Notes: generated from the letters alone by a model not told the origin. Shown: positions 8,761 to 56,856, numbered from the whole stretch's first letter. The stretch: 63,331 bases of DNA, filler included, from 9 parts of 9 records of this genome joined end to end with filler, not necessarily neighbours in it, one strand, 5' to 3'. Numbers and translations: made by a program.

Positions 8761-8860
8761 NNNNNNNNNNNNNNNNNNNNNNNNNNNNNNNNNNNNNNNN
8801 NNNNTTAATTAATTAANNNNNNNNNNNNNNNNNNNNNNNNNNNNNNNNNNNNNNNNNNNN
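8761..8860. other. Artificial contig linker
   Basis: N44-TTAATTAATTAA-N44, with stops in all six frames. Confidence 0.99.
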
Positions 8861-15113: not shown

Positions 15114-15213
15114 NNNNNNNNNNNNNNNNNNNNNNNNNNNNNNNNNNNNNNNNNNNNTTAATTAATTAANNNNNNNNNNNNNNNNNNNNNNNNNNNNNNN
15201 NNNNNNNNNNNNN
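15114..15213. other. Artificial contig linker
   Basis: N-TTAATTAATTAA-N. Confidence 0.99.
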
Positions 15214-21401: not shown

Positions 21402-21501
21402 NNNNNNNNNNNNNNNNNNNNNNNNNNNNNNNNNNNNNNNNNNNNTTAATTAATTAANNNNNNNNNNNNNNNNNNNNNNNNNNNNNNNNNNNNNNNNNNN
21501 N
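21402..21501. other. Artificial contig linker
   Basis: N-TTAATTAATTAA-N. Confidence 0.99.
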
Positions 21502-30326: not shown

Positions 30327-30426
30327 NNNNNNNNNNNNNNNNNNNNNNNNNNNNNNNNNNNNNNNNNNNNTTAATTAATTAANNNNNNNNNNNNNNNNNN
30401 NNNNNNNNNNNNNNNNNNNNNNNNNN
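30327..30426. other. Artificial contig linker
   Basis: N-TTAATTAATTAA-N. Confidence 0.99.
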
Positions 30427-35827: not shown

Positions 35828-35927
35828 NNNNNNNNNNNNNNNNNNNNNNNNNNNNNNNNNNNNNNNNNNNNTTAATTAATTAANNNNNNNNNNNNNNNNN
35901 NNNNNNNNNNNNNNNNNNNNNNNNNNN
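35828..35927. other. Artificial contig linker
   Basis: N-TTAATTAATTAA-N. Confidence 0.99.
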
Positions 35928-36009
35928 TTTTTTGTTATTTGATATTAAAATAAAAAACGCTATTACCAAGGCATAACGTCTTTACTGGAATAACGTATTA
36001 GTCTTTAAA

Positions 36010-36198
36010 TTACACACGTTCTAACTTAAGTTTTTTAAGCGCTTTTGCAGAAACTTTGACTTTTTTAACGTTGCCGTCTTCGTCTTTGATTCTGATTGTT
36101 TGTAAATTGCTCTTCCAAGTTCTACGTGTTGCGTTTAACGCATGACTACGTTTGTTTCCGAATACTGTTGATTTTCCTGTTACATAGCATTTAGCCAT
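36010..36198 (-). CDS. rpmB: 50S ribosomal protein L28
   Basis: [32 protein letters not shown] after AGGAG. Confidence 0.97.
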
Positions 36199-36507
36199 AC
36201 TCTCACTCCTAACTGCAGTATTAAATTTATCATAAATGATAAGAAAATGCAAGGCATTCATGATAATTCTTATTAATTATGTCACAAATATATGAAAATG
36301 GTGACTGCAATGTTAAAATCCGATAAATATTGCTTGAAAATCAAAGTATATGATATAATGACAATTGAGAAATACTGGATTATATTGCATTTTTATTTTT
36401 AATTATGCTATACTAGTATAGTAAATTATGTCTTAGATGAAAAACCTTAATTTAATAAAAATAACAAAGAGATGATTAAAGCATTAGAATCTTTAGGAGG
36501 ATCAAAT

Positions 36508-38166
36508 ATGGCGAATCAAACAGTCAGCGGATCTCTATTTAAAAAAATGGTAACAAATGGCGCGGTTAATTTAAAAAATAACCATAAGGAAATCGACCAT
36601 CTCAATGTCTTTCCAGTACCGGATGGTGACACTGGAACAAACATGCAAATGACAATGATGGCTGGTATTAAAGAAGTTAACAATTTAGACTCACAGTCTA
36701 TTATCGATATTTCAAAAATTTTATCACGAGGACTCTTAATGGGTGCTAGAGGAAACTCAGGTGTTATCCTCTCGCAATTTTTCCGTGGTGTTTATTCTGA
36801 AATCGCAAAAATTGATAATGGATCAGCAACCATTGAGGAATTCATTAAAGCATTAGTAGGTGGCTATCAAATGGCTTACCGTGCTGTGATGGATCCAGTC
36901 GAAGGTACCATTTTAACAGTTGTTAGAGAATCAGCAGAAAAAGTATTATTAGAACAACCTAATTTAAACAGTGTTGAAGATGTTTTAAAGATTTATTTAG
37001 AACAAGCTAGAGAAACACTAATTAAAACACCAGAACTATTACCAGTATTAAAAGAAGCAGGTGTAGTTGATAGTGGTGGGGCAGGATTTATTAAAATTAT
37101 TGAAGGTATGATAATGGCCCTTGAAGGTAATATGATTCAAGAAGCACATGCAACACCTCAACCAGAAATGAATCATGACCATTTCCATGGTGCTGAAATG
37201 CTTGGAGATGTTGATATTAAATATGGTTTTTGTACTGAATTTATTGTTCAAGTCGATGAACCGGAAAAATTTGATGAAAGTTATATGAAAGAACCATTGT
37301 CACAAATGGGTGATTCATTAGTAGTCGTTACTGATGATGACTTATTAAAAGTGCATGTGCATACAAATCAACCTGGTGTTGCATTAACACTTGCGCAAAA
37401 ATATGGTGAAATCATTAAAATTAAAATTGAAAACATGAGACAACAACATTCAACAATTATGAATCATCCAGATACTCAGGTTGCACCTAAAGTTGAAAAG
37501 AAGCAATCTAAATTTGGAATCATTGCAGTCGCATCTGGTGAAGGTATTCATGAAGCATTTAAAGAATTAGGCGTTGATCTTATTATAGATGGTGGACAAA
37601 CAATGAATCCATCAACAGAAGACTTTGTTAAAGCTGTTAAATCACTTCATTGTGAAAATGTTATTATTTTACCAAATAATAAAAACATTATTATGTCAGC
37701 TGAACAAACGATTGATTTATTAAGTGATCGCTCAATTAGAGTACTTCACACAAAAACAATTGCTCAAGGATATACATCATTAATGGCATTTGATCCAACA
37801 CAAGAACTCGATGATAATTTCGAAGAAATGACAGAAATTGTATCAAAAATGAGATCAGGTGAAATTACATTTGCAGTAAGAGATACTGAAATTAGTGGTG
37901 TTAAGATTAAAAAAGATGATTTCATTGGTATCACTGGTGGAAAAATCACAGTAGCTACACCTAAACGTGTTCAAACTGCAAAAAAACTACTTGATCAAAT
38001 CGTTGATCAAGACAGAGAAATTATTACGATATTCTTTGGCCTAGATTCTAAGCCAGAAGAAGTTGATCAAATTATAGCACATGCTAAGAAAATTAATCCT
38101 GATATTGATGTTGATCTTATCGAAGGTAAACAAGAAATTTATAGTTATATTTTCTCAGTAGAATAA
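36508..38166 (+). CDS. fakA: DAK2-domain fatty acid kinase subunit A (YloV)
   Basis: LNVFPVPDGDTGTNM, GARGNSGVILSQ, and GGQTMNPS motifs; ATG at 36508 after AGGAGG. Confidence 0.93.
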   Translation: MANQTVSGSLFKKMVTNGAVNLKNNHKEIDHLNVFPVPDGDTGTNMQMTMMAGIKEVNNLDSQSIIDISKILSRGLLMGARGNSGVILSQFFRGVYSEIAKIDNGSATIEEFIKALVGGYQMAYRAVMDPVEGTILTVVRESAEKVLLEQPNLNSVEDVLKIYLEQARETLIKTPELLPVLKEAGVVDSGGAGFIKIIEGMIMALEGNMIQEAHATPQPEMNHDHFHGAEMLGDVDIKYGFCTEFIVQVDEPEKFDESYMKEPLSQMGDSLVVVTDDDLLKVHVHTNQPGVALTLAQKYGEIIKIKIENMRQQHSTIMNHPDTQVAPKVEKKQSKFGIIAVASGEGIHEAFKELGVDLIIDGGQTMNPSTEDFVKAVKSLHCENVIILPNNKNIIMSAEQTIDLLSDRSIRVLHTKTIAQGYTSLMAFDPTQELDDNFEEMTEIVSKMRSGEITFAVRDTEISGVKIKKDDFIGITGGKITVATPKRVQTAKKLLDQIVDQDREIITIFFGLDSKPEEVDQIIAHAKKINPDIDVDLIEGKQEIYSYIFSVE

Positions 38167-38181
38167 ATTAAACAATCATTT

Positions 38182-38207
38182 AAAAAGGTGCTATGCACCT
38201 TTTTTTA
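38182..38207 (+). terminator. Intrinsic terminator
   Basis: AAAAAGGTGC-TAT-GCACCTTTTTTT after fakA. Confidence 0.85.
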
Positions 38208-38220
38208 TACATAAAATGGT

Positions 38221-38248
38221 TTGAATCATTATAAAAATATGTTATAAT
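38221..38248 (+). promoter_or_regulatory. Sigma70/SigA promoter of the tRNA
   Basis: TTGAAT-N16-TATAAT with TG extension, 12 bp before the tRNA. Confidence 0.7.
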
Positions 38249-38260
38249 CATAAGGCGTGT

Positions 38261-38346
38261 GCGGACGTGGTGGAATGGTAGACACGCAAGCTTGAGGGGC
38301 TTGTGGGCTTAGGCCCGTGTGAGTTCAAGTCTCATCGTCCGCACCA
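38261..38346 (+). tRNA. tRNA-Leu (GAG)
   Basis: Acceptor stem GCGGACG/CGTCCGC, anticodon arm CAAGC-TTGAGGG-GCTTG, long variable arm, GTTCAA T-loop, encoded CCA. Confidence 0.96.
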
Positions 38347-38535
38347 TATAACAAGCAATAGTCTGATACAATTGAGTATCAGGCTTTTTTGTCTTTGTTA
38401 AACCATTTAGTATATTAGAATTTGTACTAGACCTCACTGGAAATCAATATATGTTAACCCATTATAGTACAAAATTCAAAATGCTTACACGATTACATCT
38501 CAAATTACACGATTTAATTATCATTTACACGATTT
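38344..38535 (+). repeat. Composite repeat module, copy 1 (hairpin core + three ACACGATT boxes at 20-bp period)
   Basis: CCATAT..TGATACA..GTATCAGGCTTTTTTG, then TACACGATT at 38486, 38506 and 38526. Confidence 0.75.
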
Positions 38536-38595
38536 GAGGTTTTTTACATGATTATAACGTGTAAACTGATTATCGTTGAGAATATTTCAATATTA

Positions 38596-38649
38596 ATTGG
38601 AATATAACTTACACATAAATTGGAATAAAAACTTTACAATTATTGGAAT
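38596..38649 (+). repeat. ATTGGAAT direct repeats at 23-bp period
   Basis: Exact copies at 38596, 38619 and 38642, just upstream of the ATPase RBS. Confidence 0.75.
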
Positions 38650-38679
38650 TGGCGTATACTATAAGTGGAGGTAATAATT

Positions 38680-39939
38680 ATGATTCCTGATAATTATAAG
38701 AAGAGAATTATTGAAAAAGAAATTGAAGCTAAAATGAAATACAGTGGAGCTGTAGTTATAGAAGGTCCAAAGTGGACTGGTAAATCTACTACAGCTGAAC
38801 TTTATTCTAAAACTATTATTAAATTGCAAAATCCTATTACAAAAAAACAGTATCAAACTTTAGCAACCATTTCAAAAGAAGAAGTACTTTCTGGTGAAAA
38901 ACCAATTTTATTTGATGAATGGCATGAAGTTCCTGAAATTTGGGATTTTATAAGACTTGATATAGATGATAACAAATATAAAGGAGCTTATTTACTTACA
39001 GGTTCTACAAAAAAGCAAAACATTAACATATCTCATACAGGAACGGGAAGAATTAATTCTATATACATGCGTCCCATGAGTTTATTTGAAAGTGGAGATT
39101 CGATTGGAACGGTCTCGTTAGCTGATCTATTTGAAGGCAAAAAAATCAAAGTAGCTAAATCAAGAACAAGCATTAATGATATCGCTCATTATATTTGTCG
39201 CGGTGGATGGCCAGGTAGTCTAGAATTGCCATTAAAAGAACAACTTGCTATTCCTAAAGACTTACTTGAAAGTATTATATTAAAAGATGTAGATGAAGTT
39301 GACGGAGCCAAAAAAGACAAAGATAAAATTAGGAAACTCATACGCAGTTATGCAAGAAATATATCTACATTAGCAACCAGTAAAACGATATATAAAGATC
39401 AAGAAAACGAAGGTATTTCTATTGACTATAAAACATACGAAACTTATACAAATGCACTTCAAAGATTATACATTATTGAAAACCTTAAAGCTTGGTCTCC
39501 TGCTATTAGAAGTGCTAGCACGATTAGAACATCAGATAAAAAGCAATTTGTCGATCCAAGTATTGCTGTAGCTGCTTTGGGTTTGTCAGTAGATAAACTA
39601 AAACAAGACTTTGAAACATTTGGATTCTTTTTTGAATCGATATGTACAAGAGATATCAGAGTCTATGCTCAATCATTAGATGGTGAAGTCTATCATTACA
39701 ATGATTCATCTGGATTAGAAGTGGATTTAGTTATTGAGTTGAGGGATGGCAGATGGGCTGGTATCGAGGTGAAATTAGGTGAAAATGAAGTTGAAAAGGC
39801 TTCATCAAATCTTCTAAAAATTGCAAACATTCATAAAACTAAAAAACCTTCATTTTTGATGATACTTACAAACACTGAACTTTGTTATCAAAGAACTGAT
39901 GGTATTTATGTTATTCCTTTAGGACTACTAAAACATTAA
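38680..39939 (+). CDS. AAA+ ATPase with DUF4143 and C-terminal PD-(D/E)XK-like motif
   Basis: Walker A GPKWTGKS, FDEW, LTGS, RPMSL, GGWP, DPS, and EVDLVIE..GIEVK; ATG at 38680 after GGAGG. Confidence 0.9.
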   Translation: MIPDNYKKRIIEKEIEAKMKYSGAVVIEGPKWTGKSTTAELYSKTIIKLQNPITKKQYQTLATISKEEVLSGEKPILFDEWHEVPEIWDFIRLDIDDNKYKGAYLLTGSTKKQNINISHTGTGRINSIYMRPMSLFESGDSIGTVSLADLFEGKKIKVAKSRTSINDIAHYICRGGWPGSLELPLKEQLAIPKDLLESIILKDVDEVDGAKKDKDKIRKLIRSYARNISTLATSKTIYKDQENEGISIDYKTYETYTNALQRLYIIENLKAWSPAIRSASTIRTSDKKQFVDPSIAVAALGLSVDKLKQDFETFGFFFESICTRDIRVYAQSLDGEVYHYNDSSGLEVDLVIELRDGRWAGIEVKLGENEVEKASSNLLKIANIHKTKKPSFLMILTNTELCYQRTDGIYVIPLGLLKH

Positions 39940-40014
39940 TGTTTTTAAAATTTGATAGATGTTTAGATAATGTTTGTTTTGATTTCATATTAATGATTGG
40001 GAGGTTTAGTTAAG

Positions 40015-40446
40015 ATGAAGATTCAATACATTGATTTAAATGCAGATAATAAAATCTATTTTGATGTACTCAAGAGTGATCAATCGATTAATCGATATAT
40101 ACATGTAGATGATATAAAAATATATGTTGATTACTTACTTAAAACACCTAATGTTAAATACAAGTTTATTTTCCATAATGGTGCTTTAGTTGGAGCATTA
40201 CATATCGAAACTGCTGAAAAAGTTGGAACTTTCTCTATAGAGACTTTAAGTAAATTTCAAAAACAAGGTATTGGTTATCAAATACTAACTGATTTAAAAC
40301 AAAATAAATTTGAACTAGATATAAATGCTTATATTGTGTATATAGAATCTGACAACGTAAATTCAATTAAATTATTTGAAAAGTCTGAATTTATTCTAGA
40401 TGGTATACAAGATAACTTGCGTAAATACGTTTATATTATGAAATGA
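40015..40446 (+). CDS. GNAT family N-acetyltransferase (RimJ/RimL-like)
   Basis: FQKQGIG acetyl-CoA motif and NVNSIKLFEK; ATG at 40015 after GGGAGG. Confidence 0.8.
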   Translation: MKIQYIDLNADNKIYFDVLKSDQSINRYIHVDDIKIYVDYLLKTPNVKYKFIFHNGALVGALHIETAEKVGTFSIETLSKFQKQGIGYQILTDLKQNKFELDINAYIVYIESDNVNSIKLFEKSEFILDGIQDNLRKYVYIMK

Positions 40447-40508
40447 TTTATATCAGATATTCTCAAAAATACGCAAATAAGCAAACGACTTTATTAATTG
40501 TTTTATAA

Positions 40509-40581
40509 AGTTGCGCAAAAACAGGCTCAGGGTGCTGTAAATTTTGACAAGGGTGCGTAAAATCATATCAGGGGTGCGTAA
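40509..40581 (+). repeat. GGGTGCGTAA direct repeats at about 21-bp period
   Basis: GGGTGCTGTAA at 40530, GGGTGCGTAA at 40551 and 40572, weaker AGTTGCGCAA at 40509. Confidence 0.7.
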
Positions 40582-40605
40582 TTGTATTAAAATAGATCAC
40601 CTAAC

Positions 40606-40817
40606 CCATATTGAAAGCATAGGTTTGATACAAAAGCGAATTACCATTCGCCTCATGTATCAGGCCTTTTTTGACTCTATATAGGGTGATTTCTCTATTT
40701 ATCCAAATTTATCAAAGATAAAAAGCACATTGATTTTAGTCGATTTTTACATTTTGTATAGAGTTTCTACACGATTACACTTCAAAAAACACGATTTAAA
40801 ATGGTTTTAAACGATTT
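40606..40817 (+). repeat. Composite repeat module, copy 2
   Basis: CCATAT..TGATACA..GTATCAGGCCTTTTTTG, then ACGATT boxes at 40768, 40788 and 40808; the box block matches copy 1 at 39/50 nt without gaps. Confidence 0.75.
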
Positions 40818-40903
40818 AAAATGCAAAGATATCATTGTACTTATTTTGATTTTATTATATACTTATAGTAAGAAAGTTGGAAAGTAAGAAAAAAGGTGAT
40901 ATT

Positions 40904-41049
40904 ATGATTATAGAATTAAGAAAGAAATCGCAGATTACGATACCTAAAGAAATTGTTGATCAGTTACATCTTCAAGAAGGAGATCATCTTGAAATCTCAG
41001 TTAAGGATGGTGCAGTCCTACTAGAACCGGTGGCAATATACTCTAAATC
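40904..41049 (+). CDS. AbrB/MazE/SpoVT family DNA-binding protein (3' truncated)
   Basis: SQITIPKEIVDQLHLQEGDHLEI; ATG after AAGGTGA; AGTAAGAAA repeated twice upstream. Confidence 0.88.
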
Positions 41050-41149
41050 NNNNNNNNNNNNNNNNNNNNNNNNNNNNNNNNNNNNNNNNNNNNTTAATTA
41101 ATTAANNNNNNNNNNNNNNNNNNNNNNNNNNNNNNNNNNNNNNNNNNNN
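41050..41149. other. Artificial contig linker
   Basis: N-TTAATTAATTAA-N. Confidence 0.99.
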
Positions 41150-46387: not shown

Positions 46388-46487
46388 NNNNNNNNNNNNN
46401 NNNNNNNNNNNNNNNNNNNNNNNNNNNNNNNTTAATTAATTAANNNNNNNNNNNNNNNNNNNNNNNNNNNNNNNNNNNNNNNNNNNN
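46388..46487. other. Artificial contig linker
   Basis: N-TTAATTAATTAA-N. Confidence 0.99.
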
Positions 46488-56756: not shown

Positions 56757-56856
56757 NNNNNNNNNNNNNNNNNNNNNNNNNNNNNNNNNNNNNNNNNNNN
56801 TTAATTAATTAANNNNNNNNNNNNNNNNNNNNNNNNNNNNNNNNNNNNNNNNNNNN
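56757..56856. other. Artificial contig linker
   Basis: N-TTAATTAATTAA-N. Confidence 0.99.

Follow-up and report, generated by a model that had tools for sequence, protein, structure and literature searches.

Two copies of an attachment-site-like module behind tRNA-Leu in an Acholeplasma-like organism: a probable recombinase-less cassette within an accretion array

Systems in which accessory DNA comes to be stacked at a single chromosomal site provide the natural background for the locus described here. Among those found at tRNA genes are the CIMEs, cis-mobilisable elements that form by accretion next to integrative and conjugative elements and stack there, and both these and the tycheposons rest on tyrosine recombinases and on partial tRNA repeats; where a tyrosine integrase of the lambda type is at work, the hallmark of its attP (the attachment site carried by the phage) is a pair of iteron arms, one on each side of the core, at helical-repeat spacing. 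For the large serine recombinases (LSRs), PMC3783163 describes A118-type attP sites as pseudo-palindromes made of 25-bp half-sites around a central dinucleotide, the whole of each attP half-site being contacted and the zinc-ribbon domains being modelled on base pairs 16–24, and it has canonical LSRs pairing attP only with attB, the corresponding chromosomal site. In the staphylococcal cassette chromosome (SCC), SCCmec recombinases excise neighbouring cassettes in trans, according to PMC11470126. The present analysis concerns a 2.26-kb block of genes that lies immediately behind a tRNA-Leu gene in a stretch of DNA of 63,331 nucleotides (called here the window, which was analysed as a whole), and that is bounded by two direct-repeat copies of a module combining a hairpin with arrays of short repeated boxes, or iterons. 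The explanation favoured, to which a rough probability of 0.6 is attached, is that the block would be a recombinase-less cassette in an accretion array, built by LSR-driven site-specific recombination at the 3' end of the tRNA-Leu gene.

The two copies had been recognised in an earlier inspection of the window (the sequence-only reading), and every module coordinate given there proved exact, base for base. CCATAT lies at 38344 and 40606, TGATACA at 38364 and 40626, and the final G of GTATCAGGC(C)TTTTTTG at 38391 in copy 1 and 40673 in copy 2, while the arrays of boxes begin 95 nt past that G, at 38486 and 40768. In a repeat search the 50-nt box arrays of the two copies are 78% identical (39/50) and the 28-nt segments running from CCATAT to TGATACAA are 75% identical; the spacers that separate hairpin from boxes are of equal length and show 33% ungapped identity. 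Two of the three motifs involved cannot be put down to chance: the hairpin pattern occurs twice against an expectation of 0.00 from 100 shuffles, and ACACGATT occurs eight times against 2.13 expected, five of the eight being within the two arrays and none of 100 shuffles reaching that number. The third motif, GGGTGC(T)GTAA, has five matches in the window against 2.05 expected, a level reached by 7 of 100 shuffles and so not significant, which means that its interpretation rests on relatives. Both hairpins form strong stem-loops followed by a U-run, and no shuffle out of 200 folds as well.

As to the extent of copy 2, its start motif at 40606 was correctly placed, but the real module reaches 77 nt further to the left, taking in three GGGTGC(T)GTAA boxes with a 21-bp period (40530–40581) and then a 25-nt half-site, TTGTATTAAAATAGATCACCTAACC (40582–40606), that continues directly into the CA of CCATAT. 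For copy 1, homology with every other module copy begins at the CA at 38345, within the CCA of the tRNA (38344–38346). Copy 1 is an attL-type joint, composed of a tRNA half, the CA and the P' half of the element, so that the left-hand attachment site takes its B-type half from the 3' 25 nt of tRNA-Leu. In copy 2 the joint is of the attP type and complete, with P half, CA and P' half, which is the sort formed between tandem elements. The parts of the two copies are as follows.

38345..38371, + strand: copy 1 joint, attL type, comprising the central CA (38345–38346) and the 25-nt P' half-site TATAACAAGCAATAGTCTGATACAA
38360..38390, + strand: hairpin 1 with its T-run, the intrinsic terminator of the tRNA (terminator scan; fold -13.4 kcal/mol, z -5.0)
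38392..38485, + strand: spacer 1, conserved in length, not in sequence
38486..38564, + strand: right-arm iterons of copy 1, with three exact ACACGATT boxes (38487, 38507, 38527)
40530..40581, + strand: left-arm boxes, GGGTGCTGTAA at 40530 and GGGTGCGTAA at 40551 and 40572, 21-bp period
40582..40633, + strand: copy 2 joint, 52 bp, attP-like, with P half 40582–40606, CA 40607–40608 and P' half 40609–40633
40621..40672, + strand: hairpin 2 with its T-run, the terminator of cassette 1 (fold -21.5 kcal/mol, z -5.35)
40674..40767, + strand: spacer 2
40768..40817, + strand: right-arm iterons of copy 2, two exact boxes and AACGATTT

Copy 1 has in addition, within its right arm, a degenerate fourth box, ACATGATT (38546–38553), and an inverted partial box (38557–38564), and its P' half-site has its outer motif in the 5' arm of the hairpin. 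Left-arm boxes, one to four in number, precede the mapped internal joints of relatives as well.

The character of the recombination site is best judged from the joints between units in related organisms. Twenty-nine unique internal joints (copy 2 of the window and 28 others) align without a single indel to TTGTAtcAAAATAGGTCATaCAACc-CA-TAtnanAAGCATAGGTtTGATACAA, a quasi-palindrome of 25 + 2 + 25 bp in which the outer 10 bp of each half-site (positions 16–25) are inverted repeats, 32 bp apart, with their dyad centre at the CA. CAT is invariant in all 29, and the 7–8 nt that follow it differ even among the joints of one array. The dyad centre defined by the outer repeats coincides with the CA where homology to the tRNA flanks is lost; left flanks of every kind (tRNA-Leu, tRNA-Gly, three other types and the left half-site) end in CA, and terminal module copies diverge within a few bases of it. 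The joint therefore has the two features that, on sequence grounds, would mark an LSR site, namely an attP-like pseudo-palindrome of about 50 bp made of two 25-bp half-sites, and a central dinucleotide that appears to be shared by the partner sites, being the CA found both at the break in homology and at the boundaries seen in runs X5 and X2 (38343/38344; see below). It fits the structural definition of an LSR attP, departing from it by its arms and by the occurrence of P/P' joints. The overlap expected of a tyrosine integrase is missing, because the bases beside CAT vary and there is no identical stretch of 6–8 bp. The sequence-only reading had cast the module in just those terms, as a core with arm-type sites for a tyrosine integrase, and that frame is not supported, in view of the fixed joint, the invariance of CAT alone and the LSRs carried by the prophages that such joints bound.

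The hairpin would serve a double purpose, since it appears also to act as an intrinsic terminator insulating each unit. Its arms show frequent G-U pairs and compensatory changes (TGATAC/GTATCA to CAATAC/GTATTG), implying selection on the stem at the level of RNA; if the site belongs to an LSR, the TGATACA arm would be the outer motif of the P' half-site, and the complementary arm with the T-run the terminator. Two other identities for the site were considered and rejected: a likeness to the integron core site (ACCTAAC in the window) is not conserved among other joints, and for an IS200/IS605-type end (a hairpin some 15 nt past the CA) the right-end stem TTGTAT/ATACAA is absent from the copies in the window, L024 and L089. 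At gathering level Rfam gave the tRNA alone for the window region and nothing for six related loci.

Evidence for mobility of the block comes from Logan contigs of four runs (X1, X2, X4 and X5, the last from a different study) aligned to the contig that carries it; parts of the stretch left uncovered in X1, X2 and X4 were not used as evidence. An empty-site allele, which the sequence-only reading had named as a thing to look for, does exist: in X5 a contig of 104 nt joins 38343 to 40606, skipping exactly 2,262 bp, with only CCATAT (6 nt) shared, so that homologous recombination at this joint can be discounted. The depth of that joint is 16, compared with 15–31 over the fakA/tRNA flank (98.4% identity) and 1–3 in the cassette interior, and on the side of the AbrB gene that follows copy 2 the identity is 98.8%. 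In X2 a contig begins to match exactly at 38344 and continues rightwards, differing to the left, and in X4 a 4-kb contig has the cassette arm and the 5' part of the ATPase gene behind a different hairpin and different upstream DNA, the overlap being about 99% identical (3 differences in 344 nt). One further X2 record, in which 40633 returns to 38318 with 38 other letters, could not be interpreted.

Comparison of cassettes with their flanks, again at the level of sequence identity, also points to mobility. In zrk7 the ATPase cassette occupies a non-tRNA site and is 88% identical, against 80.5% for fakA, and the tRNA-Leu of zrk7, 100% identical to that of the window, has no module behind it. For the 3' part of the ATPase gene, the GNAT gene, the left boxes and the joint, identity in G074 reaches 88.7%, against 75% for fakA, and G074 also has a prophage remnant fused to a 5'-truncated copy of the window-type ATPase gene; the AbrB cassette and its joint are 81% identical in a tRNA-Gly array of G002 (L091).

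The suggestion that the block belongs, as a single unit, to a tandem array whose boundaries are formed by a recombination module is borne out by the recurrence of the same plan in many relatives. A search with FakA, taking one genome per species, gave 80 loci, all of them Acholeplasmataceae-like, in 51 of which fakA is followed by the 3' end of tRNA-Leu; in 8 of these 51 the contig breaks off no more than 95 nt past the tRNA, as is typical of repeats and of regions that vary among strains. In about 20 species the hairpin CCA-TAT..AGCATAGG-TGATAC stands right behind tRNA-Leu(GAG), and at least eight of those also have three to five ACACGATT boxes, with a 20- or 21-bp period, some 141 nt downstream; the remaining species have unrelated plain terminators or other inserted elements there. 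Eight loci have the module behind tRNA-Gly(TCC), the last gene of a Glu-Arg-Pro-Gly cluster, and it also stands behind at least three non-tRNA left flanks, all ending in CA. Counts of the iteron pair in five complete genomes were 14, 5, 9, 1 and 9 (0 for a reversed-pattern control), and 46 of 172 genomes of the family contain it (control again 0), a few of these matches looking like coding coincidences. The complete genomes of strains MO-XQ (CP017948) and zrk7 (CP076021) show the same architecture, as do over 40 further assemblies. A pattern search of IMG/VR yielded 22 matches, of which 9 were dropped as unrelated tandem or coding repeats.

The array of MO-XQ, extending over 12.6 kb, illustrates the plan most fully, with an attL, at least four full joints, some remnants and a terminal P/B' end. 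After tRNA-Leu and an attL-type copy comes a cassette with an ATPase and a 232-aa protein, collinear with that of the window and 80% identical to it; then follow a full joint and an XRE cassette with remnants, a full joint and a metal-ATPase cassette, a full joint and a Fic cassette, an iteron-less joint and a unit of 0.85 kb, and lastly a terminal copy with boxes and a left half-site, beyond which the sequence diverges. Arrays on the same plan occur, among other places, in G074, G002, G003, zrk7 and the 93-kb second replicon of MO-XQ. Units between joints are either cassettes of 0.8–4 kb or prophages of 30–52 kb. When all module copies were collected, the 43 unique first genes past the iterons fell into 25 families, 15 of the 43 being XRE-type regulators; the cargo includes type I restriction-modification (R-M) systems, Fic, MazE, metal ATPases, GntR-ABC, PNP_UDP_1 and Cass2. 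Relatives do not, then, carry the same fixed genes at this locus, an outcome that would have told against an array. The related objection that the module might be an ordinary terminator plus operator found genome-wide is right to the extent that there are several loci per genome, but no copy whose flanks were read (they were read for part of the genome-wide matches) precedes core genes, and the copies inspected lie in accessory regions: behind tRNA-Leu, tRNA-Gly(TCC) or non-tRNA flanks, on the second replicon of MO-XQ, or in IMG/VR records.

Several other insertions were encountered at or near the same positions. In L003, L006, L023, L027 and L041 a different conserved insert of about 95 nt, with GACTCC...GGAGTC pairing, comes right after the tRNA-Leu CCA and is followed by an open reading frame starting MRLTFEDRLKM; it resembles the leader of an IS3-type transposase. 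A third class of element, with GGGGGTAATGTGGTTCCGAAC-type repeats, was found in L026, L029, L038 and L047 (past tRNA-Leu), in L113 and at L026:18462; its end, ...TATGGCA/CCAT (the stroke marking the boundary), can abut the ACACGATT-type module, implying that a single CA serves several families of elements. At L083:7551, in L086 (minus strand, 4337), at L016:14624 and at a loose end of X1 at 40615 the insertion flank is not a tRNA but ...TCCATAATGACAAGA/CAT; it recurs in MO-XQ, zrk7 and the source sample, and neither an Rfam family nor a tRNA was found there. Finally, the cassette at L092:4379-9444 encodes a type I R-M system in which a tyrosine recombinase gene stands between two hsdS genes with a small XRE gene ahead of them, this being a phase-variable specificity shufflon.

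Candidates for the enzyme come from the prophage-sized units. In G013 (61.7 kb, CheckV 100%) terminase, portal, capsid and replication genes occupy the 50.7 kb that separate an attL-type end from a full joint; G117 has a unit of 52 kb running from an attL at tRNA-Leu to a full joint; G010 contains the same phage, at tRNA-Gly, and L045 has its left end at tRNA-Leu; and in G015 (L169-L173) two prophages 78–88% identical stand in tandem with one full joint between them. The IMG/VR record of G015 is rated 100% complete even though it holds two diverged prophages, offset by about 55–59 kb, and the idea that it was a concatemer of a circular genome with a free attP was discarded for that reason. Proteins combining Resolvase, Recombinase and Zn_ribbon_recom domains are encoded in the prophage-size elements G013, G074, G117, G015 and G003, and none is encoded in the cassette of the window or the other small cassettes. 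Three such LSRs are present in G013: one of 448 aa, the stop codon of which abuts the left boxes, and an adjacent pair of 438 and 528 aa. The pair (438 and about 530 aa) recurs in related prophages, and in all ten loci with enough downstream sequence the next joint follows 1.7–13 kb downstream in the same orientation. A different LSR pair, in L029, ends 210 nt from the tRNA-Leu CCA and is followed by a weak tyrosine-recombinase match. In comparisons with NCBIfam these LSRs are only distantly like CcrB, CcrC and XisF, scoring 74–271 bits against CcrA, CcrB and CcrC where the cut-offs are 700–900. By hand tally an LSR is present in 27 of 46 iteron-positive genomes and in 20 of 126 iteron-negative ones. 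Two individual enzymes were considered and set aside: the 448-aa LSR as the general recombinase, being near-unique and having a sole homologue with no module nearby, and the tyrosine recombinase of L092, which belongs to the hsdS shufflon mentioned above. A trio made up of two serine recombinases of 545–573 aa and a tyrosine recombinase of about 315 aa was also noted, at G001:C1:923476-928451 and 1485104-1490364, at G001:C2:16265-20750 and at G003:C1:894406-898892.

Taken together with the form of the joint, this suggests a mechanism in which strand exchange would take place at the central CA under the action of LSRs belonging to co-resident elements, the best candidates being the paired enzymes of 438 and about 530 aa from the prophages of 50 kb that share these joints. 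Small cassettes, for instance the one with the ATPase and GNAT genes, would be excised and re-inserted in trans, much as ccr-less cassettes are in staphylococcal SCC islands. The two halves of this proposal do not stand equally firm: the array and its cassettes are very probably real, while an LSR as the enzyme is put at only a little better than even odds.

The iterons are a feature that LSR attachment sites normally lack. Measured from where the T-run ends, the first ACACGATT box lies 95 nt away in 28 of 50 module copies and 94–98 nt away in 39 of them; the 26 unique 95-nt spacers, on the other hand, form at least five sequence clusters with a median pairwise identity of 0.44, half of all pairs falling below 0.45 (shuffles give 0.28). 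Length is thus kept as sequence drifts, as the two copies in the window had first suggested. The loop of hairpin 2 holds a nested hairpin of 20 nt (a variant present also in L068, L040 and L024), and this puts the first box 162 nt from the CA instead of 142 nt, a shift of exactly one iteron period. The X5 strain (about 98.8% identical) lacks exactly 20 nt, again one iteron period, at 40791 in copy 2, and the number of boxes therefore varies among strains. One speculative suggestion, offered with low confidence, is that the GGGTGC and ACACGATT boxes might be accessory arm sites for a DNA-binding protein that sets directionality or allows attP-type sites to pair. It is conceivable, although held at distinctly less than even odds, that the joint represents a novel class of LSR site, in which a 52-bp core sits in a module of about 300 bp with two kinds of phased iteron arms and a built-in terminator, the arms relaxing or gating the rule that attP pairs with attB.

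A number of points weigh against LSR-driven accretion and should be set out together. The joint has iterons on both sides, those on the right at the fixed 95-nt offset, where LSR sites normally have no arms, and the P/P' joints of the arrays call for a pairing rule more relaxed than the canonical attP with attB. The data from X1, X2, X4 and X5 are contigs rather than reads, showing alleles and not events; no excised circle is seen in any read; in X5 the joint is carried by a unitig of 104 nt with 30 nt on one side, and X5 could be a related strain that never gained the cassette rather than a product of excision. On the side of the enzyme, the ten loci with the LSR pair are one phage lineage with one architecture and hence not independent tests, and the pair lies 1.7–13 kb from the joint and not beside it. 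No PF00239 protein was found in the complete genomes G002 and G004, both of which have arrays. A tyrosine recombinase of 411 aa is encoded between LSR pair and joint in G063. The 448-aa LSR has one close homologue (56%) in 172 genomes, with no module within 1.5 kb of it, and no further homologue in IMG/VR. Lastly, the correlation between LSRs and iterons is confounded by phylogeny and genome size.

A rival explanation keeps the array but makes the enzyme a tyrosine recombinase, either Xer-like and encoded by the host or an integrase that has escaped recognition, with the iterons as true arm-type sites. Arms on both sides of the core at helical-repeat spacing are what one would expect by analogy with lambda; the P/P' joints would be accounted for, since in tyrosine systems attP recombines readily with attL or attR; every genome searched has 3–8 PF00589 proteins; a conserved Xer-like gene lies 18–30 kb from the tRNA-Gly array in five genomes; the arrays of G002 and G004 persist without a serine recombinase; and a tyrosine recombinase is contained in the module-bearing elements G014 and G063. 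This is nevertheless judged unlikely. No PF00589 protein was found in nine of ten module-bearing viral records (G013 included), in the G074 array or in G117:C2, and the sole tyrosine recombinase found adjoining a module is the shufflon enzyme of L092. Moreover, the bases on both sides of CAT differ within a single array, leaving no identical 6–8-bp overlap, and inverted repeats separated by 32 bp are unlike core-type sites, which abut the overlap.

Somewhat less likely again is that the cassettes are immobile, being decayed remnants of tandem prophages in which the module has been kept as a terminator together with a regulatory or insulator array bound by a host protein. The G-U pairs and compensatory changes do keep the hairpin as an RNA terminator, the iterons lie about 100 nt upstream of each cassette promoter, the first genes are so often XRE-type regulators (15/43), and remnants certainly exist, both in G074, with its fusion of prophage to truncated ATPase gene, and in MO-XQ, where there are some consisting of the left arm or the anchor only. 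Decay of this kind would not, however, be expected to leave both 25-bp half-sites and the CA free of indels in 29 joints, nor intact two-armed cassettes recurring at different loci with an identity above that of their flanks, nor a near-identical strain from which precisely one unit is missing, with just 6 nt in common at the joint. As for the duplication being a chance resemblance or an artefact of assembling a short metagenome contig, the contig of 5.1 kb does end in a high-depth repeat and the X1 Logan contigs never span the stretch in one piece, but chance is excluded by the shuffle controls and artefact is refuted by the relatives in which the same architecture recurs, CP017948 and CP076021 among them, so that this view can be given practically no weight.

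Some account is needed of the contig itself. The window consists of nine contigs, ranging in G+C content from 30.7 to 54.3%, joined by linkers of the form N44-TTAATTAATTAA-N44, and it is unlikely that adjacent segments come from one shared organism. The contig of interest (35928–41049; 5,122 bp, 30.7% G+C) ends 230 bp past copy 2, so the absence of an integrase from it is uninformative. Its FakA is up to 86% identical to those of Acholeplasmataceae metagenome-assembled genomes (MAGs), in keeping with the suggestion of an Acholeplasma-like host, and the genes between and after the module copies are, by Pfam, those that had been named: an ATPase, a GNAT acetyltransferase and an AbrB/MazE protein, of which the first 48 codons are present. 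In order, the contig encodes rpmB (ribosomal protein L28) and then the following; the last line gives the linkers of the whole window.

36472..38166, + strand: fakA/yloV, the conserved chromosomal flank upstream of the array (Pfam FakA-like_C, Dak2, FakA-like_M; NCBIfam YloV 650 bits)
38261..38346, + strand: tRNA-Leu(GAG) (ARAGORN; Rfam tRNA 53 bits)
38596..38660, + strand: promoter region of the cassette, three ATTGGAAT boxes with a 23-bp period over TTTACA-N16-TATACT
38680..39939, + strand: ATPase, AAA_14+DUF4143, cargo of cassette 1 (Pfam; PADLOC PDC-S01 E 1.9e-59, full length)
40015..40446, + strand: GNAT acetyltransferase, cargo of cassette 1 (Pfam Acetyltransf_1 28 bits)
40904..41049, + strand: AbrB/MazE-type gene, the first of cassette 2, cut at the contig end (Pfam MazE_antitoxin 45.9 bits)
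8761-8860, 15114-15213, 21402-21501, 30327-30426, 35828-35927, 41050-41149, 46388-46487, 56757-56856: linkers between contigs

The AAA_14+DUF4143 ATPase is a candidate anti-phage gene. Its promoter (38633–38660) bears its own three ATTGGAAT boxes (38596–38649), for which reason the ACACGATT iterons are not taken to be the operator of the cassette; the ATTGGAAT boxes are found also in the orthologous cassettes of L024 (MO-XQ) and L086 (zrk7), and are probably the ATPase cassette's own operator, separate from the iterons. At the end of the contig, X1 contigs over 41018–41049 have a depth of 370–650 compared with 10–270 elsewhere; the source sample has the AbrB region in repeated or shared form, and this is probably what broke the assembly.

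If the joint does represent a novel class of LSR site, phages, plasmids and recombinase-less defence cassettes would be captured serially behind tRNA genes, giving these wall-less relatives of the Firmicutes a functional counterpart of integrons and of SCC. Little is known of how the Acholeplasmataceae and their relatives, with their small genomes, acquire genes; the module would explain much of their turnover of accessory and defence genes, and it offers a simple sequence signature for finding islands in fragmented MAGs. Should the iteron arms indeed modulate a serine integrase, they would represent a new form of control over directionality and site pairing in a family of enzymes widely used in genome engineering.

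No description of such a system in Acholeplasmataceae was found in the literature, and its place among known systems has to be fixed by comparison. Integrons, too, line up small cassettes in order and have a recombination site wherever two of them meet, and one cassette here even encodes a Cass2 'integron-associated effector binding protein' domain. There is, however, no intI or attI (fakA and the tRNA precede the array), the joints are of fixed length in place of the variable attC hairpins, and the cassettes have their own promoter-like sites and terminators. With lambda-type attP sites and tRNA islands of the Islander type the likeness lies in the linkage to tRNA genes, the boxes on both arms at helical phasing and the tandem accretion; the differences are that the crossover here falls after the tRNA, at the CCA, and not inside it, that no displaced tRNA fragment is left, that there is no conserved overlap, and that a tyrosine recombinase is present in few of the bounded elements checked (G014 and G063). 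Tycheposons are described as also stacking cargo elements, some without a recombinase of their own, at tRNA genes, but they and the CIMEs belong to another lineage and use another recombination site.

Nearer in the form of the site are the phage serine-integrase systems (A118, Bxb1, phiC31, SPbeta), for which PMC3783163 describes the same pseudo-palindrome of 25-bp half-sites, with outer motifs at 16–24 and a central dinucleotide. One LSR gene of G013, moreover, adjoins its site. Canonical sites of that kind have no accessory repeats and recombine attP with attB only, in contrast to the two kinds of iteron and the P/P' joints found here. In function the closest analogue is the composite island of SCC. 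The targets do differ, being tRNA 3' CCA and other CA-ending sites here and the 3' end of rlmH (orfX) in SCC; the LSRs are not Ccr equivalogs (120–271 bits against cut-offs of 700–900); the units include full 50-kb phages; and the joint is accompanied, at fixed spacing, by iteron arms and a terminator, neither of which SCC sites are known to have. What the SCC/SCCmec system, moved by the paired LSRs CcrA and CcrB, has in common with this locus is the arrangement as a whole: cassettes stand in tandem at a single place in the chromosome with a repeated attachment sequence at the ends of each, many of them recombinase-less and with a cargo rich in defence and accessory genes, alongside larger elements that here possess two adjacent LSR genes.

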